Assembly (NCBI GenBank): GCA_050253335.1
Contig: JBFWJG010000005.1
Span: forward strand, 1,585 to 65,584
Direction: 5' to 3'
Origin: Deferribacterales bacterium
GTDB lineage: Bacteria; Chrysiogenota; Deferribacteres; Deferribacterales; Geovibrionaceae
Length of the DNA: 64,000 nt
Below, piece after piece: positions 42,586 through 57,200 of this stretch. Under the pieces are notes generated by a model that saw only the letters and a program-made list of their open reading frames with translations, made no database searches and was not told where the DNA came from. The position numbers were made by a program, and so were the translations under genes. Each line of letters starts with the position of its first letter. Position 1 is the stretch's first letter.

Positions 42586-44016
42586 ATGATGACACCGCAG
42601 TTATTTAATGACATCATCACGGTTTACCCCGAAATTCTGATGACGATATTTGCACTTACACTTATCGTCATAGATGTGGTTGCGGGTGATAAAATGAAGG
42701 CCAGCGTAGGCTACTTCGGCATAGCATTTGTCGCGATAGTGGCTCTGCTCTGCCCCGCCGGACCTTTTATCGGCTTCAGCAACATGCTTATATGGGACAA
42801 CTTCAGCTATGTTTTCTTCCTTATATTCGCTATGGCTTATACCCTGACTACATTGGGCTCCATCGAGTATCTGAAAGATAAAAACATGCTCAAAGGCGAA
42901 ATATACATAGTTATGTTCTTCAGCCTGATCGGCATGATGTTCATGGTAAGCGCAAATGACCTTACCATCTTCTATGTCGGTCTGGAGACAATGGCTATCT
43001 CCATGTATGTTCTCGCAGGTTTCAACAAGCACTGCCTGAAGTCAAATGAAGCAGGCGTTAAGTATTTCCTTATGGGCGCATTCTCCTCAGGTCTTTTCCT
43101 GTACGGGCTTACGTTCATTTACGGACTCACAGGAAGCCTTACCTACACCGATATAGCCGCGGCTCTTCAGGGGCACAGCGGTTCGCTCGGAATCAAGTTC
43201 GGCCTTCTGCTTATGCTTGTGGGCTTCGCGTTTAAAATATCCGCAGTTCCCTTCCATATGTGGGCTCCGGATGTTTACACAGGCTCACCCACTCCTATCG
43301 CGGGCTTTATGACTGTTGCTCCCAAGGCTGCTGCCTTCGGCGCGCTGATCCGCTTCACATGGGTAGCCATCGCCCCCGCTTCCGAACAGTGGACGCTTTT
43401 CTTCACTATCCTCGCCGTTCTCACTATGACATACGGCAACCTTGTTGCTCTCGCGCAGGAGAATGTGAAGAGAATGCTTGCCTACTCAGCCATAGCTCAT
43501 GCGGGCTACATGCTGATAGGCCTTGTCACCATGACTCCGGAAGGGATCAGGGCAATCACGATCTACATGCTGATCTACAGCTTTATGAACATAGGCGCTT
43601 TCACTGTTATCGGTCTGCTCAAAAACAAAGGCATGATAGACGATGAAAGAATAGAGAGCTTCGCCGGTCTTTCCAAAAAGAACCCGCTTGTTGCTCTTGC
43701 CATGCTGCTTTTCATGTTCTCTCTGGCGGGAATACCTCCGCTTGCGGGATTCGTGGGCAAGTTCTATATCTTTATCGCAGCCATCAAAGCTGAGGTATAC
43801 TGGCTTGCCATAGTGGGCGTTCTTAACAGTGCCCTTGCCTGCTACTACTATATGCGTGTGACAATATACATGTATTTCAAAGAGCCGGAATACGAAACAG
43901 AGCTTACGCTTAAAGCACCCAGCTTCATCGCCACTTTTATAGCGGCTGTGCTTGTGGTTCTGGTTGGTTTCTTCCCCTCTTTCTTCGTAAATCTCGTAAG
44001 CTCGCTTACGGTGTAA
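42586..44016 (+). CDS. nuoN: NADH-quinone oxidoreductase subunit N
   Basis: EAGVKYF, FKISAVPFHMWAPDVY, KRMLAYSAIAH. Confidence 0.97.
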   Translation: MMTPQLFNDIITVYPEILMTIFALTLIVIDVVAGDKMKASVGYFGIAFVAIVALLCPAGPFIGFSNMLIWDNFSYVFFLIFAMAYTLTTLGSIEYLKDKNMLKGEIYIVMFFSLIGMMFMVSANDLTIFYVGLETMAISMYVLAGFNKHCLKSNEAGVKYFLMGAFSSGLFLYGLTFIYGLTGSLTYTDIAAALQGHSGSLGIKFGLLLMLVGFAFKISAVPFHMWAPDVYTGSPTPIAGFMTVAPKAAAFGALIRFTWVAIAPASEQWTLFFTILAVLTMTYGNLVALAQENVKRMLAYSAIAHAGYMLIGLVTMTPEGIRAITIYMLIYSFMNIGAFTVIGLLKNKGMIDDERIESFAGLSKKNPLVALAMLLFMFSLAGIPPLAGFVGKFYIFIAAIKAEVYWLAIVGVLNSALACYYYMRVTIYMYFKEPEYETELTLKAPSFIATFIAAVLVVLVGFFPSFFVNLVSSLTV

Positions 44017-44025
44017 CGGGGTAAA

Positions 44026-44490
44026 ATGATGGATGCATCTGTAAGAAAAGCGCTTGAAGAGGCAAAAGAAAAGAAAGCACTGTCCTATGAATTTTATGAC
44101 AAGCTGCTTAAAGTCGTGAGTGATCTCAGCACCAAGGAACTTATAAAAGATCTTATGGAGCAGAAGAAAAAGCATGTTGAGATCATTAAGCATGCGCTTG
44201 AGACAGGTTCGCTGGAAAACCTCGGTCTTGATGTAAGCTGCCGCTGGAAAGGTCTTGGGATCGGCCAGGGTGTGAAGCCTGAGGTGGTCACCGGCGAGCT
44301 TACGGTTCAGGATGTGCTTCTGATAGCCATCAGATACGAAGATAACTCTGTGAAGTACTATGAAGATCTTTCTGAAAAGTTTAAGGGAACCCCCGCAGGG
44401 GAGGTTTTCTTTAAGCTGGCAAGCGATGAGGCATGTCACAGAAACGATGTTCAGCGCATGTATGACGACATAGTAAATCTTGAGAATTAA
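44026..44490 (+). CDS. Ferritin-like (rubrerythrin-type) protein at the end of the nuo operon
   Basis: AIRYEDNSVKYY ... DEACH helix pair; starts 9 nt after nuoN. Confidence 0.8.
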   Translation: MMDASVRKALEEAKEKKALSYEFYDKLLKVVSDLSTKELIKDLMEQKKKHVEIIKHALETGSLENLGLDVSCRWKGLGIGQGVKPEVVTGELTVQDVLLIAIRYEDNSVKYYEDLSEKFKGTPAGEVFFKLASDEACHRNDVQRMYDDIVNLEN

Positions 44491-44520
44491 GAAGGCGGCA
44501 GTACTGTTGTCTTTATACCT

Positions 44521-44547
44521 GGCGGGGGCTGATGCTCCCGCCTTTTT
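44521..44547 (+). terminator. Intrinsic terminator of the nuo operon
   Basis: GGCGGG..CCCGCC stem followed by TTTTT; a weaker G-U-rich hairpin at 44491-44514 precedes it. Confidence 0.8.
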
Positions 44548-44558
44548 CATTTTACGGT

Positions 44559-45018
44559 AAAAATTTACCATCCATGGAAATTTTTACACACGCTCGCGGT
44601 CTGCAAAGCAGACCTTCGCTACGCACGGCGTGCTCCCTTCCATGGCAGCATGTTTATAAGCTGCTTGCTGCTCTGGTTACGCTTGCGTTCCTCGCGTTCG
44701 CTGCGGTACGCGCTCCACGGGCAACATCCATGTGCCTGTTATTCGGCTTCGCTCCGCACGGCGCAGTATCTGTCTTTCCGCTCCAAAAACTACATCCTGT
44801 GTTTTTTCCGCACACGCTCGCGCCGAAGCAAGTTCGGCTTCGCTCCGCACGACGCAGTTCCGTCCATGGAACTGTTTATGTCATTCTGAGCGTCAGCGAA
44901 GAATCTCTTATTTATAAATAGTTCAGAAACGGCACATCCTGTCCGTTTCCTCACACGCTCGCGCCGAAGCAAGTTCGGCTTCGCTTCGCACGGCGCAGTT
45001 CCATCCATGGAACTGTTT
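44559..45018 (-). repeat. Modular palindromic repeat cluster A (7 GGA-loop hairpins)
   Basis: Units at 44559-44650, 44785-44877 and 44926-45018, a partial unit at 44741-44767, a diverged unit at 44651-44740 and a 28-nt module at 44880-44907; 44811-44877 and 44952-45018 differ at 3 of 67 positions. Confidence 0.92.
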
Positions 45019-45049
45019 GCGTCCAAAGGAAAGAAGAAGGAATTAATAA

Positions 45050-45700
45050 TTACCCCTCAACCAGCCCCTTTTCCGTGAGGAACATTTTGCGTGCGCCGAC
45101 TTTCTCGATGAAATCAGTATCGTGAGAAACTATCAGCATTGTTTTGTCGATTCCGCGGAGAATTTCAGCAAGCTTATCTGCGCTTTTTTCATCCAGCGCC
45201 GCTGAGGGCTCGTCGAGAAGAAGTATTTCCGGCTTCATGACAAGGACAGAAGCGAGAGCCACCATTTTCTTTTCCCCTCCTGAAAGGTGAAGAGTTATGC
45301 GGTCACGCAGATGAACTATATGCAGTTCACTAAGCATGGCTTCTGCCTTTGCGGCGGCGTCAGCCTGCTTCATGCCTTCATTGAGAAGACCGAAGGCAAC
45401 CTCTTCTATCACTGTCGGGGCTATTATCTGATCATCCGGATCCTGAAAAAGGAAGCCTATCTTTCGCCTTGCATCCGCGAAATCCTTTTCTGTTTCAAGT
45501 TTTTTATGGTGAATCTCGAAATGGCCGCCGCATGTTCCGCCCAAGCCCACTATCGCCTTGAGAAGCGTGGTCTTTCCAGCGCCGTTAGGCCCGAGGACTG
45601 CTATTTTATCCTTATGGGTAAGATTTATTGAAACGTTTTCAAAGAGAATTCTGTCTGCTGTGCGGCAAGATATGTTTTTCAGAGAAAGTGTACAGCTCAT
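45050..45700 (-). CDS. cbiO: ECF/ABC transporter ATPase (CbiO/NikO)
   Basis: GPNGAGKTT, FQDPDDQ, LSGGEKK, LLDEP. Confidence 0.9.
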   Translation of the reverse strand: MSCTLSLKNISCRTADRILFENVSINLTHKDKIAVLGPNGAGKTTLLKAIVGLGGTCGGHFEIHHKKLETEKDFADARRKIGFLFQDPDDQIIAPTVIEEVAFGLLNEGMKQADAAAKAEAMLSELHIVHLRDRITLHLSGGEKKMVALASVLVMKPEILLLDEPSAALDEKSADKLAEILRGIDKTMLIVSHDTDFIEKVGARKMFLTEKGLVEG

Positions 45701-46353
45701 AAAACCTGCCTGATAATGAGCGCTGTCTGGATTATGAGCACAGCCGCCAGAAAGCCGTCAGCTATGCACAGAGGGCGGGCGTTAAACGGATATAGTTTGC
45801 CCTTAAATCCCCTAAGCTGCATTGCGTGATGCAGAGATTTTGCCTTTTCCATGCTTTTTACGAACAGCATACCCACCAGATACCCGAATGTTTTGTAAGT
45901 GAACAGGTTAGTTTTCGGATTAAAGCACCGTATCCTGAGTGAGTCACGCATTTTTTTATATTCCGAGCCCAAAATCTCAATGTATTTTATAACAAAGAAT
46001 AAAAGTACCGTAAACCTGTCAGGGAATTTCAGCCCGCTGAACCCGTAATAAATGCCCATTGCTCCGTGAGGGGCGAAAAGAAGAAGATTAGCGCTGAGGA
46101 TTAGGTTTGCCCTCAGAAAAATAAGCAGAGCGTATGATGTGTCACGATGAAAAATGAGAACTGTGGCACATATGAAAAGTATCACAAGGTTAAGCCTAAG
46201 CAGACGGAGAAAGGGTCTGAAAGCGGATTTTAACGACACGGCCGCCAAAAACAGAGCAAAAACAGCGTCATATGCATTTATTTCTGTCCTGAACGCTATC
46301 AGCAGTGAGTAAATGACTGCGGCTGCAATTGAAGCAGCAGGCGAAAATTTCAT
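45697..46353 (-). CDS. cbiQ: ECF transporter T component (CbiQ/NikQ)
   Basis: LRIRCF and MQLRGF Arg motifs; hydrophobic. Confidence 0.88.
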   Translation of the reverse strand: MKFSPAASIAAAVIYSLLIAFRTEINAYDAVFALFLAAVSLKSAFRPFLRLLRLNLVILFICATVLIFHRDTSYALLIFLRANLILSANLLLFAPHGAMGIYYGFSGLKFPDRFTVLLFFVIKYIEILGSEYKKMRDSLRIRCFNPKTNLFTYKTFGYLVGMLFVKSMEKAKSLHHAMQLRGFKGKLYPFNARPLCIADGFLAAVLIIQTALIIRQVL

Positions 46354-46868
46354 TTTTTCCTGAAAAGTAAGAAAAGTCCGAAGATTCCGAAGAGGTAGCC
46401 TATCCCGGCTATTATCTTATCAGTGTCTGAACGCCCCTTGTCTATGGCGGCCTGAATCTCAAGAGTCTGCCTGGAGAGTTCCTGACGGATTACGGAACGC
46501 AGAGAATCTGCATCAGCGGCTGTCAGTGCTTCTGCGCCAGAGGATGCTTCAGCGGTTTCAGAGGGCGCTTCAGTCGCAACTTCCGTTTTGGCGAAGTGCC
46601 CCATGCCTGCATCAACATTAACGAAGAATGATGACGGCAGCTCACCGCTAAGCACTGCTTCCCCGCCTTCGCTGAGTTTTCCGCTGAACAGAACATGGCC
46701 GTCCGCAGATGTGACGGTATACCCGCAGCTTTTGCAGTAGGTTCCGTCCGCAAAGTAGGAGGTGATGCTCAGGGTTCCCTCCTCATTGAAGGCAAGGACG
46801 TTCAGCTTGTGAGCGTAAACAGGTGAAAGTATCGAAAAAAAGAGTAAAAAAGTAAAAAAACTTTTCAT
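46350..46868 (-). CDS. Accessory exported/membrane component of the Ni/Co ECF transporter
   Basis: Signal peptide then AHKLNV, DAGMGH, C-terminal TM GIGYLFGIFGL. Confidence 0.75.
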   Translation of the reverse strand: MKSFFTFLLFFSILSPVYAHKLNVLAFNEEGTLSITSYFADGTYCKSCGYTVTSADGHVLFSGKLSEGGEAVLSGELPSSFFVNVDAGMGHFAKTEVATEAPSETAEASSGAEALTAADADSLRSVIRQELSRQTLEIQAAIDKGRSDTDKIIAGIGYLFGIFGLFLLFRKK

Positions 46869-46875
46869 TTTAGCC

Positions 46876-47472
46876 TCATTTGTCAAGCAATGAAGGATAA
46901 ACCTTCAGGATGAATCTTAATATAAAAACTGTGGCTGTCCCTTCAATCAGCATGACGGGTAAATGCGCCAGAAAAATAGCCTGTGCCGCCTGAAACAGCT
47001 TGTCACCGCTGAGAAAAAGCATGAATGCAACCAGAAGGCTTGAAAGAGCCACGGGTACGAAGCCTGTAAGAAAAAACAGAAACGTTCTGAGGATGCCATC
47101 AGCCGATGCAGCTTTTCTGAAAATGAAAAAAGCGCATACAGCGGGGAACGCAGCGTCAAATGTATTTACTCCCAGTGTCGTTATGCCGCCGAACTGAAAG
47201 AGAAGCCCCTGAAGCAGAAGCGCCATGAATATTGCGGGAAAGGCCGCAAAACCGAGCACAGCGCCTACCAGTCCGTTCAGAAGCAGATGAACACTTGAGG
47301 GACCTAAGGGCACGTGTATGAAGGAACCGACAAAAAACAGGCTGGACATCAGCGCTGTTTTCGTCAGCAGTTCATCCTTCATTTCGCGAAAGCCGTAAAC
47401 GAGAAATCCAATCGAGGCGGCCGCCCCTGCGCCAAGCACAGGAGCGGAAAGAACGCCTTCGGAAATGTGCAT
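46876..47472 (-). CDS. cbiM: ECF S component CbiM/NikM
   Basis: N-terminal MHISEG metal-binding motif, SVHLLLNG, LLFQFGGITTLG. Confidence 0.92.
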   Translation of the reverse strand: MHISEGVLSAPVLGAGAAASIGFLVYGFREMKDELLTKTALMSSLFFVGSFIHVPLGPSSVHLLLNGLVGAVLGFAAFPAIFMALLLQGLLFQFGGITTLGVNTFDAAFPAVCAFFIFRKAASADGILRTFLFFLTGFVPVALSSLLVAFMLFLSGDKLFQAAQAIFLAHLPVMLIEGTATVFILRFILKVYPSLLDK

Positions 47473-47473
47473 A

Positions 47474-48229
47474 CTAGTCTGCTCCGTAAGTTTTCACCCA
47501 GAAAACAGCGCCAAGCTCAACGGGATATTCTTTGCCTTCGTGTTTGACTGTAACATCGTCTTCAATGAGAGCGGCGAATGCCCACCAGCCTGCAAAGGGC
47601 ATGGAATATGAAAAAACACCGTTGGCGTCTGCCTTGATAACCTGAGTTATGTGTGCGTCTGTGGGGTGTTTAATCTTACTGCCTTTGTTATAAAATTCAA
47701 CCTCAATCTCGGCATTGGGGACTGCTTTGCCTTTATAGATAACCTTGCCAGTGAAGCTGTTTCCTTTCCAGAGGCCGTAGGGGCGTGTGAGAGGCACAAT
47801 TTCCGCTTTAAGGCCGACAGGCGTGTCCCAGCCTTCTTCCATGCCGAAAGCGTTGACTACAGTCTTTGTGATGTGCTGGATGAATACGCCTTCGGCGGGT
47901 TCAAAGTAGTAGTCAGGAGTCACTGTGAAAATATAGTCGCCGGGCTTGGTGAAAGAGTATTTGAAGCCCCATGTTGATTTACCCTGAACCGCAGTCTTTG
48001 TTATTGATTTCATAAGGTCGGTTTTTTTGCCGTCGAAATAGACTGAGACATCTTTCGGCTTAACCATTTCCATGATAGGACCCTGCTCAAACGGATGGGT
48101 GAACTCCATTCCGAAGGAAGCTGTTCTGGAAGCAGGTGTTACAACATCCGCAGAGGGTATAAGGGTCTGAAAATGCGCGAAAGCCGCTGACGCGCAGAAT
48201 ACGAGCAAAACAATAATAAATTTCTTCAT
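47474..48229 (-). CDS. DUF4198 periplasmic metal-transport accessory protein
   Basis: Signal peptide, mature N-terminus HFQ, THPFE, EIVPLTRP. Confidence 0.85.
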   Translation of the reverse strand: MKKFIIVLLVFCASAAFAHFQTLIPSADVVTPASRTASFGMEFTHPFEQGPIMEMVKPKDVSVYFDGKKTDLMKSITKTAVQGKSTWGFKYSFTKPGDYIFTVTPDYYFEPAEGVFIQHITKTVVNAFGMEEGWDTPVGLKAEIVPLTRPYGLWKGNSFTGKVIYKGKAVPNAEIEVEFYNKGSKIKHPTDAHITQVIKADANGVFSYSMPFAGWWAFAALIEDDVTVKHEGKEYPVELGAVFWVKTYGAD

Positions 48230-48239
48230 ACTGATCTCC

Positions 48240-48299
48240 GTGTTACGAATTTAGATCACGGTGTTATCATGGTGGCATAAAAAAGTCAATACGTGTTAT
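48240..48299 (-). promoter_or_regulatory. Promoter of the ECF operon with NikR-like half-sites
   Basis: GTGTTAY at 48240, 48261 and 48293; TTGACT-N17-TAACAC (48289-48261) with a TG extension. Confidence 0.6.
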
Positions 48300-48362
48300 T
48301 GTGACGGAATATGATTTTTGAGCTGCTGCTGCGGATTGGCTGTATTTTAAGTTAAGGATGAG

Positions 48363-48506
48363 ATTCTGAACGTAGTGAAGAATCTGAGACCGCCGTAAAA
48401 TATATGCTGTGTACAGTTCCACGGAGGGAACTGCGTCGTGCGGAGCGAAGGGCGGTTTATCCGCCCGCGAGCGTGTATTCAAAATTTCCATGGACGGGAG
48501 AATTTC
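48363..48506 (+). repeat. Modular palindromic repeat cluster B
   Basis: 23-nt module at 48363-48385 plus one full unit; 48413-48497 matches 53049-53133 at 82 of 85 positions. Confidence 0.92.
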
Positions 48507-48521
48507 GATTATATAAAGCAA

Positions 48522-48552
48522 AAAGGCTTGCTCTTTAGAGGAGCAAGCCTTT
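48522..48552 (-). terminator. Terminator after tRNA-fMet
   Basis: 12-bp stem AAAGGCTTGCTC/GAGCAAGCCTTT. Confidence 0.8.
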
Positions 48553-48565
48553 AAACTGTTCGAAA

Positions 48566-48639
<74 letters not shown>

Positions 48640-48651
48640 CCAAGGATTGCT

Positions 48652-48680
48652 AACATACACGCCGGATCTTTTGTTGTCAA
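48652..48680 (-). promoter_or_regulatory. Promoter of tRNA-fMet
   Basis: TTGACA-N17-TATGTT with a TG extension. Confidence 0.75.
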
Positions 48681-48807
48681 GAATAAATATGAAATTTTTT
48701 TTAAATCTGTCGGTGTTGAAAAATAACAAAGACTATCATAGGATTAATTATGGCTTGCCGAAGGGTTTTGACGGCATGTTCCTTACGAATTTAAAGGGAG
48801 AATTTTC

Positions 48808-49656
48808 ATGAATACTGTCTATATATCCGCTGTCCTTTTTGCCGCTGCCGCTGCCGCATCGTATATTCTGCCCCAGCTTCCCGGCGGGAACAACCATGTC
48901 ATCCTTACGCTGCTTGTGTGTCTGACAGCTTTTTCGGCCGGATTCGGCTGGTGGCGTGCTAAAAAGAACCGCATGAGGGAAGAGGAACTCAGCGGAATGA
49001 TTCTGCGTGAGGAGAAGCGCACCGTTGGCAGGTTCCTGATCCATGAGTGGCGTGGGCTTATCCAGAATATCGGCATTCAGGCGGAGATGATGGAGCGTGC
49101 CGAGAACATGGAGGGCGTTAGGGTAAACTGCGGCGTTATAAGGAAAATTCTTCGTGAAGAGGCTGAGAAGACAGACAGAGCCGAGTTTTATTTCCGCAAG
49201 GACGGCACAAGTATGAAGAAATCCTCAAAAGCTGTCCAGAAAGCCGTTTCGGATGCTGAGATTTTTCACGGGAAAAAAAGAGTAAAAGTTGTGTACAATA
49301 CAGCAAAAAAAGACCTTAAATCAGACTTTGACAAGCTTCATCCGTGCGTATTCTTCGCGCTGATGAACACTTTTTCCGCTGTTAAGGATAAGAACGGAAC
49401 CGTAACCCTCAGCGTGGCGGAAAGGGTTCTTGGATTTACCGAGTTTCTTGAGATATCTGTTGAGGGGGGCGAAATGCTTTTTGACAAGGAGACGGAAGAT
49501 CTCTTTCACCCATTCAATGTATCCCCTGATAAGTTCAGAGGATATTTCGGCCTTGCGACAGTGAGGAGGCTCGCCTCCGATATGGGCGGGTTTGCAGAAG
49601 TCGAACGGGGTATAGACAAAACATGCGTATATATCGTTATTCCGGTGGCTAAATGA
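48808..49656 (+). CDS. Membrane-anchored, degenerate histidine-kinase-like protein
   Basis: Two N-terminal TM segments; H-box-like LIHEWRG; F box LFHPF; altered N, G1 and G2 boxes. Confidence 0.7.
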   Translation: MNTVYISAVLFAAAAAASYILPQLPGGNNHVILTLLVCLTAFSAGFGWWRAKKNRMREEELSGMILREEKRTVGRFLIHEWRGLIQNIGIQAEMMERAENMEGVRVNCGVIRKILREEAEKTDRAEFYFRKDGTSMKKSSKAVQKAVSDAEIFHGKKRVKVVYNTAKKDLKSDFDKLHPCVFFALMNTFSAVKDKNGTVTLSVAERVLGFTEFLEISVEGGEMLFDKETEDLFHPFNVSPDKFRGYFGLATVRRLASDMGGFAEVERGIDKTCVYIVIPVAK

Positions 49657-52493
49657 CGGAAAAATTTGAAAAAACAGTTCAGAGGATTAACCATCCGGAC
49701 AGAAATGATCTCGCCGCAGTATTCAGGCACTCCGTCTTTATTGCCGACTGGCTTGAGAAAAATCCAGAATATGCGGCAAAGGCTCTTGATTCGGCAAAAA
49801 CCGAGCGGAATGTGGACTCAATTCTCAATGACATTCTCACGCAGGATTTCCACGAACTGGATGAAGAGGCTCTGCTGAGGCATCTGCGACTTGTTAAAAT
49901 GACCGAGTACACCGCAATTGCCCTGAAAGATCTGGTTTACGGGGCGGATGTGAAGGATGTCACTGCGCACATATCCTCATTCGCCTCCGCTTCGCTTGAA
50001 GCGGCCTATAAGTACGCTTATTTCAAGGTAAGCCGGGAACTGGGTAGGCCGCAGGACGCGGAAGGCTCAAGGGTCGGCATGACTGTGATAGGGCTTGGCA
50101 AGCTGGGCGGGTGGGAGCTGAATTTCAGCTCTGACATAGACATAATGTATGTTTACGGCACGGAGATGGGCAGAACCGATGACAGCGGGGAGAAGGCTTC
50201 CGTGGAGAACCATGTTTTCTTTACCCGCGTTGCCGAGAAAGTGACCCACTACATAGGCACAAGAACGGCGGACGGCATCGTTTTTCGTGTGGATCTCCGC
50301 CTCCGCCCCGACGGAGACAGAGGCGCGATAGTTCTTCCTGTCAGAAGCTGTGAGATATATTACGAATCATACGGGCAGGGCTGGGAGAGGATGATGCTTC
50401 TCAAGGCGAGACCCGTAGCGGGGGACAAACGCACCGGAGCGGAATTTCTCCGCGCGGTTAGGCCGTTTGTCTTCAGGCGCAGTCTGGATTATAAGCTTCT
50501 GGACGAACTGAAAAGCATAAAACAGAAGATAGACCGCCGAGAAGAGATAAGGGGGAACAGGAATGTCAAACTGGGCTACGGCGGCATAAGGGAGATAGAG
50601 TTTGTTGTTCAGGCTTTTCAGATTCTCTATTATCCGAAATTCCCTGAGATTTACCACCCCTCGACTCTGGACGGAATAGACCTGCTTGTGAAATTCGGCC
50701 AGCTTGAGGCGCAGGCCGGGGAGAGACTGAAGGACGAATACCGCTTTCTGCGCAGGCTGGAGCACATGGCGCAGATTGAGAACGAGAAGCAGACCCACGT
50801 GATCCCCGAGGACAGCCCCGTCTTTCCGCTTTATCTTGAGCGGTGCGGTTTTGACTGTGCTGAAAAGTTTAATGAAAAATTCACCGAAACCACAAGGTTC
50901 GTCCATAAGGTTTTCTCCGGGATCTTCAAAGAGCACGAAGCTCCGGACGCTTCCTCCCTTATCTTTGACAAAGAGCTTGAACAGGAGGAAGTGGCAAGGA
51001 TAATACAGGACAAAGGGATCAGGGACGCCGTCAGGTGTTCGTCTATAATAAAAGACATACTTCAGGGGCGGAAAAACACCATACGCACGCCGGAGGAGAT
51101 CCGTATTATCGAGATGGTGCTCACCCGTGTTCTGGAGCATCTGCCGGAGAGGACGGATCCGGCGGGAACCCTGCTGAATTTTGAAAAGCTTCTCTCGCAC
51201 CCGACCACTGTTTATCTGCTTCAGGACATCATAACCGGAGCACCTGCTATTCTGGACAAGCTGGAGAATATTTTCTCCTTCAGCCGCTATATGTCCGACC
51301 AGATAATAAGCGACCGCACGCTTCTGGATTATATATACGATCCCAAAGACCCCGACTTCAAAAGCGGCTTTATCCGCCTTGACTACCATGAGCGCACAAA
51401 CAAATACACGGGCGATACGGAATACATAATGGAGATAGCCCGCCAGCGGCACAAAGCTTATATTTTCAACGCAGGCTATGCCTTCCTCAACGGAACCCTG
51501 AACGTGATCCACACCATGAAGGCGCTTACGGAACTGGCCAAGGGCACAATACAGTTCGCTGTGGACGCCGTGTATGATCAGGTTGCCGCCAGATACGGAA
51601 GGCCAATGACCGCAGACGGCAGGATATGCGATTTCCTCGTTGTGGGAATGGGTAAGCTCGGGAGCTATGAGATGAGCTTCGGCTCCGATCTGGACATTAT
51701 TTTCCTTTACGAGGAGAACGGGCGGACAGACGGCAAAAACTCTATAACCAACATGGAGTTTTTCACCAAAGTGCTCCAGAGGGCAATATCCTTTCTCAGC
51801 TCATATACCACAAACGGCATTCTTTATAAGATAGATACGAGACTCCGCCCCAGCGGTTCCAGCGGAACTTTGGTGACAAGCCTTCCCGCCTTCAGGGAGT
51901 ACCAGCTCAAAGAGGCGATGACATGGGAAAAGCAGGCACTGGCACGTTCAAGCGTGGTCAATGCGGATTCGCCTCTCAGCGGCAAATTTGATGAAATTAA
52001 GACCGAGTGCCTTTTCAGTTCACCTTTGGGAAAAGAAAGGATAAAAGATATAAAGGAAATGCGCGCAAGGATAGAGACGGAAAAAGGCTCGCCCCCTGAA
52101 AAGAATGATATAAAGGCGGGCTATGGAGGAATGCTGGACATAGAGTTTGCGGTGCAGATGCTCCAGCTTCTGACCGGACACGAGGATGAGAATGTCCGCA
52201 ATCCCAACACCCATGACGTGATGGTTCATCTAAAGGACAAGGGTTTTATAAAGGACAGGGACTATTACGCCCTGCACGACAGCTATCATTTCTACAGAAC
52301 ACTGGAAAATGTTCTGAGGATCTATGAGAATACATCAACATCAAAGCTTCCTTCCAATGAGGAGGTTCTGGCCAAGGCGGGGATGTTCTTCTGTTTTGAG
52401 AAAAATCCCGCGGAGTGTTTAAGCGAAAAATACGCATGGGTGCGCAAAAGCGTCCGTGCGGCCTACAACAGAGTTTTTGAGAGGTACATGTAA
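49653..52493 (+). CDS. glnE: Glutamine synthetase adenylyltransferase/deadenylylase
   Basis: Two NT domains: GLGKLGGWELNFSSDIDI, DLRLRPDG, KLGYGGIREIEF; GMGKLGSYEMSFGSDLD, DTRLRPSG. Confidence 0.95.
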   Translation: MTEKFEKTVQRINHPDRNDLAAVFRHSVFIADWLEKNPEYAAKALDSAKTERNVDSILNDILTQDFHELDEEALLRHLRLVKMTEYTAIALKDLVYGADVKDVTAHISSFASASLEAAYKYAYFKVSRELGRPQDAEGSRVGMTVIGLGKLGGWELNFSSDIDIMYVYGTEMGRTDDSGEKASVENHVFFTRVAEKVTHYIGTRTADGIVFRVDLRLRPDGDRGAIVLPVRSCEIYYESYGQGWERMMLLKARPVAGDKRTGAEFLRAVRPFVFRRSLDYKLLDELKSIKQKIDRREEIRGNRNVKLGYGGIREIEFVVQAFQILYYPKFPEIYHPSTLDGIDLLVKFGQLEAQAGERLKDEYRFLRRLEHMAQIENEKQTHVIPEDSPVFPLYLERCGFDCAEKFNEKFTETTRFVHKVFSGIFKEHEAPDASSLIFDKELEQEEVARIIQDKGIRDAVRCSSIIKDILQGRKNTIRTPEEIRIIEMVLTRVLEHLPERTDPAGTLLNFEKLLSHPTTVYLLQDIITGAPAILDKLENIFSFSRYMSDQIISDRTLLDYIYDPKDPDFKSGFIRLDYHERTNKYTGDTEYIMEIARQRHKAYIFNAGYAFLNGTLNVIHTMKALTELAKGTIQFAVDAVYDQVAARYGRPMTADGRICDFLVVGMGKLGSYEMSFGSDLDIIFLYEENGRTDGKNSITNMEFFTKVLQRAISFLSSYTTNGILYKIDTRLRPSGSSGTLVTSLPAFREYQLKEAMTWEKQALARSSVVNADSPLSGKFDEIKTECLFSSPLGKERIKDIKEMRARIETEKGSPPEKNDIKAGYGGMLDIEFAVQMLQLLTGHEDENVRNPNTHDVMVHLKDKGFIKDRDYYALHDSYHFYRTLENVLRIYENTSTSKLPSNEEVLAKAGMFFCFEKNPAECLSEKYAWVRKSVRAAYNRVFERYM

Positions 52494-52494
52494 A

Positions 52495-53025
52495 GTGCTG
52501 AAGTTTTTGGCGGTTATAGACTATGAAACCTTCGGGGAGGACTATCTGAAGGTTGCAGAAAGGGTTGCGGACAGGGCGGAGATGATCTGGTTCCGCGCGA
52601 AGAACCTTACTGCGGCGGAAATCTATCAGAAAGCGGTGAAGATGCGGGAGCTTCTGCCGGATGCTTTTCTTATTTTATCTGAAAGACCGGATATCGCCGC
52701 CGCTGCCGGATTTGACGGTGTTCAGCTCAATGAGCGCACCCTCCCGCCGGAAACGGTGGAGCAGGTTTTTCCCGAGCTTATCACAGGATATTCAGCTCAT
52801 TCTCTGGAAGAGATTGTGAAAATTCAGGCGGATTTTTTCACCCTCAGCCCGATTTTCATGACCGACAAGCCTTACGAGGTCAACCCTCTGGGGGCGGTGG
52901 ATGTAACGGATACGGAGAAAAAGGTTTATGCTCTGGGCGGCGTTACGGCAGGCTCACTTCCGCTTCTGAGAGGGAAGGGCTACTACGGCTACGCCGGAAT
53001 CGGCATAATCAAAGGGATGATATAA
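52495..53025 (+). CDS. Thiamine-phosphate synthase-like (ThiE/TenI) protein
   Basis: FDGVQL, GYSAHS, LSPIF, YALGGV; GTG start just after glnE. Confidence 0.82.
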   Translation: MLKFLAVIDYETFGEDYLKVAERVADRAEMIWFRAKNLTAAEIYQKAVKMRELLPDAFLILSERPDIAAAAGFDGVQLNERTLPPETVEQVFPELITGYSAHSLEEIVKIQADFFTLSPIFMTDKPYEVNPLGAVDVTDTEKKVYALGGVTAGSLPLLRGKGYYGYAGIGIIKGMI

Positions 53026-53046
53026 CAGTTTTCAAACGATGATAAT

Positions 53047-53434
53047 AAACAGTTCCATGGAGGGAACTGCGCCGTGCGCAGCGAAGGGCGGTTTATCCGC
53101 CCGCGAGCGTGTATTCAAAATTTCCATGGACGGCAAATTTTGAATTATTAAGAAAAGACACTGCGCCGTGCGGAGCGAAGCCGCATTCATTGCGGCGCGA
53201 GCGTGTACATCAAACCGACAGGATGTGCGGTTTGATGTTGTTAAATGAGAGACTCTTCGCTTTGCTCAGAGTGACATTTCGGCTGGTCATTCTGAACGCA
53301 GTGAAGAATCTCAAACCGCTTTAATGTATATGATTCCAAACAGTTCCACGGAAGGAACTGCGCCGTGCGGAGCGAAGCCGCATTCATTGCGGCGCGAGCG
53401 TGTACATCAAACCGACAGGATGTGCGGTTTGATG
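53047..53434 (+). repeat. Modular palindromic repeat cluster C (5 GGA-loop hairpins)
   Basis: Units at 53047-53143, 53160-53238 and 53338-53434; 53161-53237 is identical to 53358-53434 over 77 nt; inverted 27-nt doublet at 53249-53275 and 53286-53312. Confidence 0.93.
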
Positions 53435-53437
53435 CCA

Positions 53438-54211
53438 TTAATAGAAGTGATTCACCGGCCCGTGGCCTCTGCCGATATTCATTGAATCCGCATGGCGTAT
53501 CGCCTCGGTGATATACCGCTTTGCCTCGAATGCCGCCTCTGTTATGTCATAATCCTTTGCAAGCCAAGCCGCCACAGCCGAGGCGAATGTGCACCCTGTT
53601 CCGTGGGTGTTGCGTGTTGCGACCCTCGGAGCATCCAGCCAGATAAACTCATTGCCGTCATACAGAAGATCACGGCTGTGCGAGCCTGAACCGTGCCCCC
53701 CTTTGAGGATGACATTTGCACATCCGAGTGCCCGCAGTTCCTTTGCCGCCTCCTCAAAATTATCTATGCTGTGCCCCAGAAGAACCTCCGCCTCCGGAAT
53801 ATTCGGCGTGATCACAAGCGCCAGCGGGATAAGGTTCTTCTTCACGGTTTCCACCGCCTCCTGACGGAGAAGAGGGCTTCCCCCCTTGGCCACCATAACC
53901 GGATCGACAACAAGCTTGCGCACACCGTATTTCTTCATGGCATCCGCGACAGTGAGAACGATTTCAGGGGAGGAGAGCATCCCTGTTTTCACGGCGTCCG
54001 CCCCCATATCCGCAAAAATCGCGTCTATCTGGGAATTTATTATGCTTAAAGGAAGGTCAAAAACATCCGTAACGCCCAGAGTGTTCTGCGCGGTGATGGC
54101 GGTGACTGCGCTCATGCCGAAAACACCGTTTGCGCTGAACGACTTAATATCCGCCTGAATGCCTGCGCCGCCGCCTGAATCGCTCCCTGCTATGGTTAGT
54201 GCCTTTTTCAT
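53438..54211 (-). CDS. thiD: Hydroxymethylpyrimidine/phosphomethylpyrimidine kinase
   Basis: ALTIAGSDSGGGAGIQAD, VDPVMV, ITPNIPEA, NTHGTGCT. Confidence 0.96.
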   Translation of the reverse strand: MKKALTIAGSDSGGGAGIQADIKSFSANGVFGMSAVTAITAQNTLGVTDVFDLPLSIINSQIDAIFADMGADAVKTGMLSSPEIVLTVADAMKKYGVRKLVVDPVMVAKGGSPLLRQEAVETVKKNLIPLALVITPNIPEAEVLLGHSIDNFEEAAKELRALGCANVILKGGHGSGSHSRDLLYDGNEFIWLDAPRVATRNTHGTGCTFASAVAAWLAKDYDITEAAFEAKRYITEAIRHADSMNIGRGHGPVNHFY

Positions 54212-57200
54212 GCCGCCCCTCCGCTGTACTGCTTTTTGCGCCAGCCGTTGCTGCGGCCGTTTCCGTTGTCCTGAAGCTCCTCGGTTTTCACTTTCACGTC
54301 GAAGCGTTTCTCGCCGAAAATATTTTCTATATCTTTAAAAAGTCCGAAGCTCGGCTTCACTCTGAAGTCGCTTCCGGCGCTCATCTTCACCACAAACTTC
54401 GATGGCATTTCCACCTCGAACATAACTGCCGCATCCCCCTGATGATCAGAGAGAAGCTGTCTCAGCCTGTGCATTCTCTCCTCTGAAAAAGCCACGGCGT
54501 TCAGTTTAATCACAACAGTTTCCGTGAGCTTTTCCACCGTTTCGTCAGCATCAAAAATCTCCTCCGCCTTGAAGCTCACACGGTCGTCTTTTTTACTCAC
54601 TCTGCCTTTTATGACAATTATTTTGTCCTCTTCCAGATAGCGGATGTTCTCCTGATACATCTTGGGGAAAACAAGCACATCCACCTCGCCCTGCATATCC
54701 TCAAGGGTTATGAATGCCATTTTCTCCTGCTTGGTCTTGGTGATGTGATGCTTCACAGCCTTCACCATTCCGCCTGCTATCGCGAAGGTGTCGTCATCCT
54801 TCTCCGCCAGGTCTTTAGAGGATACGGTAAATGTGTCCAGCACTGAGCTGTAGCGGGCAAGGGGGTGGTTGGTCACGTAAAAGCCCAGAACCTCTTTTTC
54901 GAAAACAAGAAGCTCATTCTCCGGCATCTCCTCGCATTCGGGGTAAAACTCGTCATTGCCGCCGTCCTCATCGTCATCTCCGGCATTGAGGAAATCCTCT
55001 ATGGACATTATCCCCTGCTCCTTCATCTTCTGCTTGCGCTGACCCTGTTCCAGAGCCTGCTCCAGAACCTGAAGGTGCTGTCTGCGGTTTTTGCCGAAGC
55101 TGTCCAGCGCCCCGGCTTTTATCAGCGATTCCAGAACCTTTTTGTTGGCGAGGCGGAGATCGATCCTCTCGCAGAGGTCGTAAATCGATGTATAGGGTCT
55201 TTCCTCTCTGTTCTGAACTATGGAGTCTATGGCGCTGAAACCCACGTTCTTTATGGCTCCCATGCCGAAGCGGATATTGCCGCTCTTTATACTGAAATCC
55301 TTCCCGCTCTCGTTTATGTCCGGCGGGAGGACAAGGATTCCCATCTTCTCCGTCTCTTCCTTGAAGGCGACAACCTTCTCCCCCTTGTCAAGTTCGCAGG
55401 AGAGGAGAGCGGCCATATATTCCACCGAATAGTTGGCCTTGAGCCACGCCGTCTGGTAGGCGACAATGGCATAAGCCGCTGAGTGGCTTTTGTTGAAGCC
55501 GTAGTCGGCGAATTTCTCCATTAGGTTGAAGAGCTCTTCGGCTTTTTCTTTTGTGAAGCCGCGCTTGATTGCGCCCTCCACGCCCATTTTCTCATCGCCG
55601 TTGATGAAAATATTCTTGTGCTCCTCCATCAGCGAGGCCTTTTTCTTGCCCATTGCACGGCGGAGAATATCCGCGTTGCCGAGGGAGTATCCGCCCACGA
55701 CCTGAGCAATCTGCATTACCTGTTCCTGATAGACGATAATGCCGTAAGTCTCTTTCAGTATAGGGACAAGCTCTTCCAGAGGATAGTCGATGACCTCCTC
55801 CCCGTGCTTTCTTTTCACGAATGAGTCAAGCATGCCGCTGCCTATGGGCCCCGGACGGTAAAGGGCAACGAGGGCTATAACGTCCTCTATGCATTCGGGG
55901 CGGAGCTTTTTCAGGAGGTTTTTCATCCCCTCGCTTTCAAGCTGGAAAACGCCTGTGGTGTCCCCCGCCGAAAGCATGTCATAGGTCTTCTGATCGCCGA
56001 GATCAAGCTTCTGCATGTCTATGTCTATGCCGTGAACGGCCTTTATGTTTTTCACCGCGCTGTCTATGATCGTAAGGTTTTTGAGGCCGAGGAAGTCGAA
56101 CTTGACAAGACCGACCTCCTCCAGCGTGTCCTTCTCGAACTGGGTAACAACCTCGTCATTCTGCCCCTTGCAGAGGGGAACATAAACGTCCAGCGGTTTA
56201 TCGCCGATGACTATCCCCGCTGCGTGCATCCCTGCGTTCCTCAGGAGCCCTTCCAACTTGCGGGCGTGCCGGAGTATATCTGTCCCTTTCTCTATCTCCG
56301 CAAAGGCGGATTCCAGATCGCTGTCAGCCTTAAGCGCCTTGTTTATGGTCATCCCCGGCGACTCGGGTATGGTTTTGGCAAGCTTATCCACATCTTTGAG
56401 CGGAACTTCAAGCACCCTTCCCACATCACGCACGGAGCCCCTTCCTAGAAGCTGGCCGAAGGTGATAATCTGCGCCACCCTGTCATCCCCGTATTTACGG
56501 CGGACGTACTTGATCACCTCTTCACGTCCGTTTACGCAGAAGTCTATATCGAAGTCGGGCATGGACTCCCTTTCCGGGTTGAGGAAACGCTCAAACAGCA
56601 GGTTGAAGCGGATCGGGTCTATATCCGTTATGCCGAGGGAGTAAGCCACGAGAGAACCGGCGCCTGACCCCCTTCCGGGGCCGACAGGTATCTTCTGAGT
56701 GTGAGCATAGTTTATGAAGTCCCACACTATGAGGAAATAGCCCGCAAAACCTTTCATAACAATGATTTTGAGTTCCGTCACGAGCCTGTCGTAATATTCC
56801 TGATGCAGATTTTCGGGCACATGGGCAAGCTTGCGCCTGAGCCCTTCCCTTGAAAGATGCTCAAGGTAGGAATCGATGCTGTAGCCTTCCGGCACATCAT
56901 ACTCCGGCAGGTGGAGATTGCCGAACTCAATGGAGCTTTCGCATCTTTCGGCTATTGTCAAAGTGTTGGTCAGCGCCTCAGGCACATCCCTGAACGAAGC
57001 CCACATCTCCTCCGGCGATTTCACCCAGAGCTGGTCTGTGTGGATCTCCATCCTGTTGGGAGAGCTGAGGAGAGACTGGGTCTGTATGCACATAAGCACC
57101 TCATGGGAGAGGTGATCGCCCTTGTCCAGATAGTGGCAGTCGTTTGTCGCAACAAGGGGAATGCCCATGTCCTTGGACATTTTCATAAGCTGTCTGTTTA

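Follow-up and report, generated by a model that had tools for sequence, protein, structure and literature searches.

A constant-length hairpin with freely varying stems is the middle arm of a three-hairpin repeat in a genus of Deferribacterales

In a 64,000-nucleotide stretch of a Deferribacterales bacterium genome (hereafter the window; contig positions 1585-65584 of a 2.58-Mb draft genome with 48.9% G+C and 99.9% completeness), short inserts of differing sequence recur between the same flanking motifs, and each can be folded into a hairpin with a 5-bp stem and a 5-nt loop. This raises the question of what preserves the pairing and the length of such a hairpin, here called hairpin B, while its sequence changes. 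Our analysis showed that hairpin B is real and under strong structural constraint, with pairing and length kept and sequence free. It is not free-standing. It forms the middle arm of a repeat of about 100 nt with three hairpins, a larger unit that was absent from the account given in an earlier note on this DNA.

The earlier note had quoted four hairpin sequences, and all four were located where it had placed them, in seven hairpins in total (Table 1). The pattern GCGAAG-N15-CGCGAGCG, in which the insert comprises 5 bp, 5 nt and 5 bp, matched seven times in the window against 0.04 matches expected by chance, and seven matches were reached in 0 of 100 shuffles. A tolerant pattern scan of the window's genome yielded 144 copies at 88 loci, and a complete genome of the same genus (G003), scanned over 2.8 of its 2.998 Mb with the last 197 kb left out, contained 277 copies at 124 loci. 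The insert was 15 nt long in 133 of the 144 copies in the window's genome, 16 nt in seven and 14 nt in four, and the 15-nt form accounted for 92-94% of copies. Across the genome-wide copies, pairing was retained (97.8% standard pairs in the distinct copies) and the length was constant in about 93%. The constant length described earlier therefore holds for this large majority, while the remaining copies carry 14 or 16 nt and the hairpins of a sister genus mostly have 14 nt (5+4+5).

Pairing was quantified in a gap-free alignment of 109 distinct 44-nt cores, each consisting of the 5' linker, hairpin B and the 3' linker. The 97.8% of hairpin B pair cells occupied by standard pairs compared with 71.5% in shuffles, cells in which both sides had changed numbered 203 against 55 in shuffles, and registers shifted by 1-3 columns were merely 28-61% paired. 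An independent set, drawn from a third genome and the sister genus, gave 98.4% paired cells versus 68.9% when shuffled. In a mutual-information scan of 302 distinct copies from two genomes, the five stem pairs of hairpin B occupied the top ranks. The sixth rank was taken by the pair 24-28; in about 40% of copies these two positions are C-G or U-A, which leaves a triloop. Overall, 96.8% of the stem pairs are Watson-Crick despite saturated variation, and the 5-nt loops (UUUAU, UUUAC, CUUUG, UUCAT) are pyrimidine-rich.

Among 386 copies of the 15-nt form in two species, we counted 20 distinct perfectly paired stems, and their minimum spanning tree requires about 20 pair replacements, a lower bound on the number of independent ones. 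Because the covarying cells reduce to about 20 distinct stems, the covariation is solid, yet the independent events behind it number in the tens, not the hundreds. Three series of replacements could be followed through their intermediates, namely G-C to G.U to A-U (GGCGG/CCGCC, GGCGG/CCGTC, GACGG/CCGTC), U-A to U.G to C-G (GTTTG/CAAAC, GTTTG/CAGAC, GTCTG/CAGAC) and C-G to G.G to G-C (CCTTG/CAAGG, GCTTG/CAAGG, GCTTG/CAAGC). At one orthologous locus (C17:33806), both members of the array differ between the species by a compensated pair. These stepwise paths argue for classical compensatory evolution over one-step template switching. The proposal that selection acts on a single-stranded fold was thus supported, since the stems vary freely yet remain Watson-Crick, pairing is kept in three genomes and the sister genus, and intermediates are present. 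The proposal that subfamilies are common to several loci also stood, with 13 of the 20 stems occurring in both species. Sequence alone leaves the folding strand as either RNA or single-stranded DNA.

The complete unit reads [hairpin A]-CGCCGUGCG-N-AGCGAAG-[B]-CGCGAGCG(UGU)-[hairpin C], or in numbered form [A, 6-8 bp] C2GCCGUGCG10 N11 A12GCGAAG18 [B] C34GCGAGCG41 UGU [C, 8-12 bp] UUAUUAAG. Across 278 distinct copies, the 29-nt junction around hairpin B was 92-100% conserved at positions 2-10, 12-18 and 34-44, with G15 and A17 invariant and N11 free. The fold predicted by RNAalifold from a MAFFT alignment of 36 full units contains five helices, namely hairpin A, a mini-hairpin, a 2-bp helix, hairpin B and hairpin C, and compensatory changes were found in 25 of its 29 pairs. 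Direct counts of pair types were in agreement with this fold. The mini-hairpin (CGC-CGU-GCG) has 3 bp, C2-G10, G3-C9 and C4-G8, with the loop CGU, and its pair 3-9 appears as AU six times and as GU five times. The 2-bp helix joins G13 to C40 and C14 to G39 and covaries (GC to AU, CG to UA), and the closing pair of hairpin B, G18-C34, covaries in the wider set formed by the third genome and the sister genus. A closing helix GUGCG/UGUAC suggested by RNAfold was dropped, as its 3' half is part of hairpin C and lacks conservation in the sister genus, and RNAalifold prefers the mini-hairpin.

What remains unpaired is an invariant, purine-rich 3x4 internal loop, G15A16A17/G35C36G37A38, in which tandem sheared G.A pairs could form. 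In comparison with a kink-turn, G15.A38 and A16.G37 are possible and invariant and lie beside the 13-14/39-40 helix; in place of a 3-nt bulge there is a 3x4 loop (GAA/GCGA), so at the sequence level it does not appear to fit the canonical motif. The flanking AGCG and GCGAAG motifs had previously been read as lacking Watson-Crick pairs and perhaps forming a non-canonical junction. That reading is partly right: Watson-Crick pairs do join G13C14 to G39C40, where AU and UA replacements covary, and G18 to C34, and it is the GAA/GCGA loop that is left over.

All three hairpins share the behavior of hairpin B, in that their stems are free in sequence and their pairing is kept. The modules are reshuffled among units, with no mutual information between B and A or C. 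Internal G.U pairs outnumbered A.C mismatches by 64:3 in the stems of hairpin A and 72:7 in those of hairpin C (55:5 in the window's genome alone). Because G.U pairs far exceed A.C pairs there, the strand as written here is the folding strand.

To determine how widely the repeat occurs, we searched genomes with a covariance model of the core (R1). All four genus genomes contained at least 116-150 copies each. Of four genomes from a single sister genus, two carried 4-6 copies (ten copies in all), and 33 further genomes from the family and the order gave no match. In a pattern scan of public genomes, one of the carrier genomes bore the name 'Deferribacterales bacterium Deferri_01'. Pattern matches outside Deferribacterales (Steroidobacteraceae, Pirellulales and others) were taken as chance, since they were lost under the covariance model except for a weak match of 28 bits in Muribaculaceae. 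The repeat is therefore specific to one Deferribacterales genus, with few copies in a sister genus. In the ten sister-genus copies, both the linkers and the GGA-bearing hairpins described below are retained, and all ten copies lie immediately upstream of a Shine-Dalgarno (SD) sequence. Their B stems differ (AGCAU, CCGGA, AAUAA, CCACA, CAUAA, CCUGA) and mostly enclose a 4-nt loop. In these copies (L052, L053, L058, L059, L200-L205), hairpin B is mostly a 14-nt form with 5 bp, a CUUG loop and 5 bp. Comparison with Rfam, which the earlier note had called for, gave no match over the units: when the Rfam 15 covariance models were run over 43000-55000 at E<=10, only a tRNA was significant. In the literature searched on repeats of Geovibrio, the provisional name of this genus, no description of the repeat was found, and the repeat family is undescribed.

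Comparison of the window's genome with G003 provided information on the age of the copies. At 46 of 58 syntenic loci (79%), units were present in both species, although the flanking genes are only about 75-99% identical, mostly 80-90%. Shared loci differ between the species in their number of units, and about 20 of the 46 show replacement of the B type. When 17 pairs of orthologous units were compared, identity was 97% in the linkers, 47% at N11 and 73% in the B stem; for the latter two, random pairs gave 29% and 47%, respectively. Given the shared loci and the high identity of the linkers relative to N11 and B, the copies are old and purifying selection acts strongly on the junction; had gene conversion acted alone, N11 and B would have been homogenized too. 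Comparison of filled and empty sites revealed neither terminal inverted repeats (TIRs) nor target site duplications (TSDs), and the differences consisted instead of 35-50-nt duplications, in which the end of the upstream gene is included, and of deletions. A miniature inverted-repeat transposable element, for which TIRs and short TSDs are expected, was rejected on this basis. At C29:15063 and C7:21835, in comparison with G003, the units are bracketed by 35-50-nt copies of the 3' end of the upstream gene, and some losses look as if the DNA between the similar GGA loops of A and C had been deleted, with hybrid hairpins left behind.

The units occupy specific positions relative to genes. The core begins 0-40 nt past the upstream stop codon at 61 of 154 loci, so that hairpin A abuts the stop codon. 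An SD sequence and start codon follow downstream at 61 of 210 loci, compared with 15 such loci on the opposite side, and the distance to the SD has a sharp mode at 40-49 nt past the core, about 10 nt past hairpin C. All multi-copy arrays in the window's genome are direct. Mixed orientation was seen at 0 of its 88 loci and at 2 of 124 in G003, and arrays reach eight units. Between codirectional genes, 31 loci were sense and 10 antisense in the window's genome (87:29 with G003 added). A further 20 loci in the window's genome lie between convergent genes and six between divergent genes, against backgrounds of 188 and 257.

Hairpins A and C carry a second conserved feature. Their tips are conserved as CA-N-GGA-NG (CAUGGAUGG, ACAGGAUGU), while their lower stems vary. 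GGA lay in the apical loop of 217 of 305 distinct A hairpins (71%) and 277 of 327 distinct C hairpins (85%), compared with 23 and 44, respectively, in shuffled sequence (8-13%). CsrA recognizes AUGGA/ANGGA motifs, with A(N)GGA presented in apical loops (PMC5207318). Hairpins A and C, not B, display A(N)GGA in apical loops, with at least two sites within bridging distance, and they are inferred to be candidate CsrA sites. The median distance from the last GGA to the SD is 27 nt. The window's genome encodes flgL-fliW-csrA, with csrA directly after fliW and a flagellin-family gene before it. At C12:10500-11220 (locus L047, 1016-1731), csrA overlaps fliW by 4 nt. Because of this overlap and the preceding flagellin-family gene, the host CsrA is predicted to be of the FliW-partnered type. 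As in the known targets of CsrA/RsmA and in the sponge RNAs CsrB/RsmZ (PMC5207318), the repeat offers A(N)GGA apical loops, two per unit and many per array, and at 29% of loci its last GGA lies about 27 nt from a GGA-containing SD. It differs from the sponges in that its sites are dispersed inside operons rather than gathered in a dedicated small RNA (sRNA) gene, in that its GGA hairpins are linked by a conserved junction and hairpin B, both without GGA, and in its FliW-partnered host CsrA.

Based on these data, we favor the possibility, to which we assign a probability of roughly one half, that the unit serves as a recognition or docking platform at the RNA level, with hairpin B as a strut of fixed length and two CsrA-type hairpins presented at operon junctions. 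The unit would be active as a segment of mRNAs, located in intercistronic spacers and in 3' regions, and the invariant junction together with hairpin B would form a rigid platform recognized by a protein or through a tertiary contact. Hairpin B would supply just a helix of fixed length, which would explain the compensatory drift of its sequence under constant length and pairing. The platform would present the two GGA hairpins as candidate sites for the FliW-type CsrA, and the spacing of the last GGA loop from the GGA-containing SD would suit translational control or mRNA stabilization. The fold prediction, the sense-strand G.U bias, the placement next to stop codons and SDs, the purifying selection and the apical GGA all support an RNA-level role.

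Several observations weigh against this reading. Within hairpin B itself, G.U and A.C pairs are about equally frequent (12 and 10 of 1930 pairs), so that B alone gives no strand-specific signal; a further 19 mismatches are the recurrent A19.G33. In G003, with its origin near 150 kb and its terminus near 1.61 Mb, the orientation of the element flips with GC skew at both, and orientation tracks the direction of replication independently of gene direction. In the two genomes combined, whose counts are not independent since the species share most loci, units beside leading-strand genes were 73 sense to 15 antisense and those beside lagging-strand genes 14:14, with odds of about 2.2 each for transcription and replication. 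A two-factor analysis could not separate the two effects, both of which are present. At loci between convergent genes, the sense strand was the leading strand in 38 cases and the lagging strand in 17, and about a quarter of loci are antisense to neighboring genes. CsrA is widespread and occurs in related genera that do not have the repeat.

A more specific version of the platform is tentative and appreciably less probable. It would be a genus-wide, repeat-borne CsrA network at some 90-125 operon junctions per genome, in which the junction and the B strut position two high-affinity GGA hairpins. Through these, CsrA of the FliW type, acting by itself or together with another protein that binds the junction, would control how the downstream gene is translated and how stable the upstream message is. 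Such a network would be the functional equivalent, in dispersed form, of the CsrB/RsmZ sponges, none of which is known in this lineage. If the GGA hairpins bind CsrA, the family would illustrate how a repeat can build and spread the regulon of a global regulator, and the junction would represent a new RNA motif. Structured repeats of the repetitive extragenic palindromic (REP), bacterial interspersed mosaic element (BIME) and bcr1 types are common, and whether they serve the host or themselves is mostly unclear. The present repeat is an unusually clean case, with hundreds of old, position-conserved copies, a near-invariant 29-nt junction and three stems drifting under strict pairing. It offers a ready covariance model, a natural compensatory series and a concrete set of possibly controlled genes.

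The orientation data fit another explanation that is possible though doubtful, in which a REP/BIME-like element acts as single-stranded DNA, its hairpins and linkers are recognized by a copying or recombination activity on the lagging-strand template, and it persists through that activity with RNA effects secondary. In about 70-75% of cases, convergent loci included, the sense strand of the element serves as the template for lagging-strand synthesis. The high copy number, the direct arrays with their differing numbers of units at a given locus in the two species, the replacement of the B type at about 20 of 46 shared loci, the reshuffled modules and the strictly Watson-Crick pairing of B, with G.U about equal to A.C, are also in keeping with such an activity. 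The repeat resembles REP/BIME elements and their REP-associated tyrosine transposases (RAYTs) in consisting of short, high-copy extragenic hairpins in mosaic arrays at 3' ends and in intercistronic spacers, with subfamilies within one genome (PMC2817692, PMC3733652, PMC8266576), and the high number of extragenic palindromes (144 and 277 copies) and their enrichment at 3' ends are REP/BIME traits. However, a search for RAYT/IS200 proteins and the Y1 HUH transposase domain (PF01797) gave no match in any of the four genus genomes, whereas control genomes matched. No GTAG/CGTC tetranucleotide lies beside the palindrome in the aligned copies, where B is flanked by GCGAAG and CGCGAG, and the arrays are direct rather than alternating, without inverted REP pairs. 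The unit also combines three hairpins with a long invariant junction over about 100 nt, and its stems are free, whereas REP stems are conserved by class. The precise position between stop codon and SD, the sharing of 79% of syntenic loci between species with genes 80-90% identical, and the lack of TIRs or short TSDs, with duplications running into gene tails, likewise argue against an element maintained by copying. The bcr1 repeat of the Bacillus cereus group is similarly dispersed between genes and forms multi-hairpin folds kept by compensatory changes; it is about 155 bp long with 5-bp flanking direct repeats, and its copy positions are not conserved between strains (PMC3184786). The present repeat differs from it in its shared loci, its lack of a short TSD and its unrelated sequence.

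The remaining explanations appear considerably less probable. Arrays of up to eight units with two GGA hairpins each could be imagined as stand-alone sponge sRNAs of the CsrB/RsmZ kind, titrating CsrA with B and the junction as spacers, and locus B (48414-48512) is antisense to both of its neighbors. This is improbable, because most units abut a stop codon, an SD or both inside operons, neither a dedicated promoter nor an intrinsic terminator belongs to the unit (downstream of hairpin C lies UUAUUAAG and not a U-run), and a spacer role leaves the 92-100% conservation of the junction unexplained. Slightly less probable still is an effect on transcription elongation similar to that of nut/boxB sites or BIMEs, through pausing, Rho-dependent attenuation or antitermination, with the linkers as boxA and B as boxB. 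Units are found inside operons as well as at operon ends, and the lambda boxB has the same geometry, a 5-bp stem and a 5-nt loop beside conserved single-stranded boxes; in both the lambda nut and rrn boxB elements, 15-nt hairpins of this form adjoin such boxes, and in rrn operons the structure of boxB is conserved, not its sequence. We rejected identity with nut boxB, as the B loops are pyrimidine-rich (UUUAU, CUUUG) rather than purine-rich and GNRA-like, the linkers are unlike the boxA consensus, and the repeat has hundreds of copies. Least likely of all the rivals is a purely mutational origin of the covariation, in which template switching at quasi-palindromes copies one arm onto the other. 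That process would give perfect Watson-Crick arms without a preference for G.U, as in B; it does not account for the stepwise G.U, U.G and G.G intermediates, the fixed stem length without creep into loop or flanks, the strong purifying selection on the surrounding linkers, or the tolerance of A and C for G.U and not A.C.

Table 1. Repeat units and associated repeat copies in the window (positions of the window; core = 5' linker, hairpin B and 3' linker, 44 nt).
Feature	Position	Strand	B sequence or description	Core	Hairpin A	Hairpin C
Hairpin B, unit A1	44599..44613	-	GTCTG-CTTTG-CAGAC	44588..44631	44631-44650	44556-44589
Truncated unit	44741..44771	-	5' linker and first arm of B (CCGAA), joined to a different repeat module			
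Hairpin B, unit A2	44823..44837	-	CCGAA-CTTGC-TTCGG	44812-44855	44855-44874	~44779-44812
Hairpin B, unit A3	44964..44978	-	CCGAA-CTTGC-TTCGG	44953-44996	44996-45015	44921-44954
Hairpin B, locus B	48451..48465	+	GGCGG-TTTAT-CCGCC	48433-48476	48414-48433	48475-48512 (imperfect)
Hairpin B, unit C1	53087..53101	+	GGCGG-TTTAT-CCGCC	53069-53112	53050-53069	53113-53145
Hairpin B, unit C2	53181..53195	+	CCGCA-TTCAT-TGCGG (short tandem form)	53163-53206	absent	53207-53238
Hairpin B, unit C3	53378..53392	+	CCGCA-TTCAT-TGCGG	53360-53403	53341-53360	53405-53434
Second repeat	48363-48390	+	(G)TCATTCTGARCGNAGNGAAGAATCT(C)			
Second repeat	53289-53316	+	(G)TCATTCTGARCGNAGNGAAGAATCT(C)			
Second repeat	44880-44905	-	(G)TCATTCTGARCGNAGNGAAGAATCT(C)			

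The three loci of the window differ in their gene context. At locus A, unit A3 begins about 30 nt after the stop codon of an ABC ATPase gene (45050-45700, minus strand), and at locus C, unit C1 starts 25 nt past the stop codon of a thiE-like gene (52456-53025), with the locus facing thiD. The neighbors to which locus B is antisense are a DUF4198 gene and a tRNA gene. The latter (48566-48639, minus strand) has the anticodon loop CUCAUAA with the anticodon CAU, and a bidirectional terminator-like hairpin (48520-48552) lies between it and the locus. Two further repeated modules accompany the units. The second dispersed repeat listed in Table 1 forms a small hairpin, often stands beside the three-hairpin units and has 26-41 copies in the window's genome. 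A third module at 44650-44740 on the minus strand, GGCACAUGGAUGUGCC-CGUGGAGYGCG...AGCGAAYGCGAGGAACGCAAGCGYAACCAGAGCAGCAAG, is fused to the truncated unit and occurs in about ten genome copies with GGA-loop hairpins.

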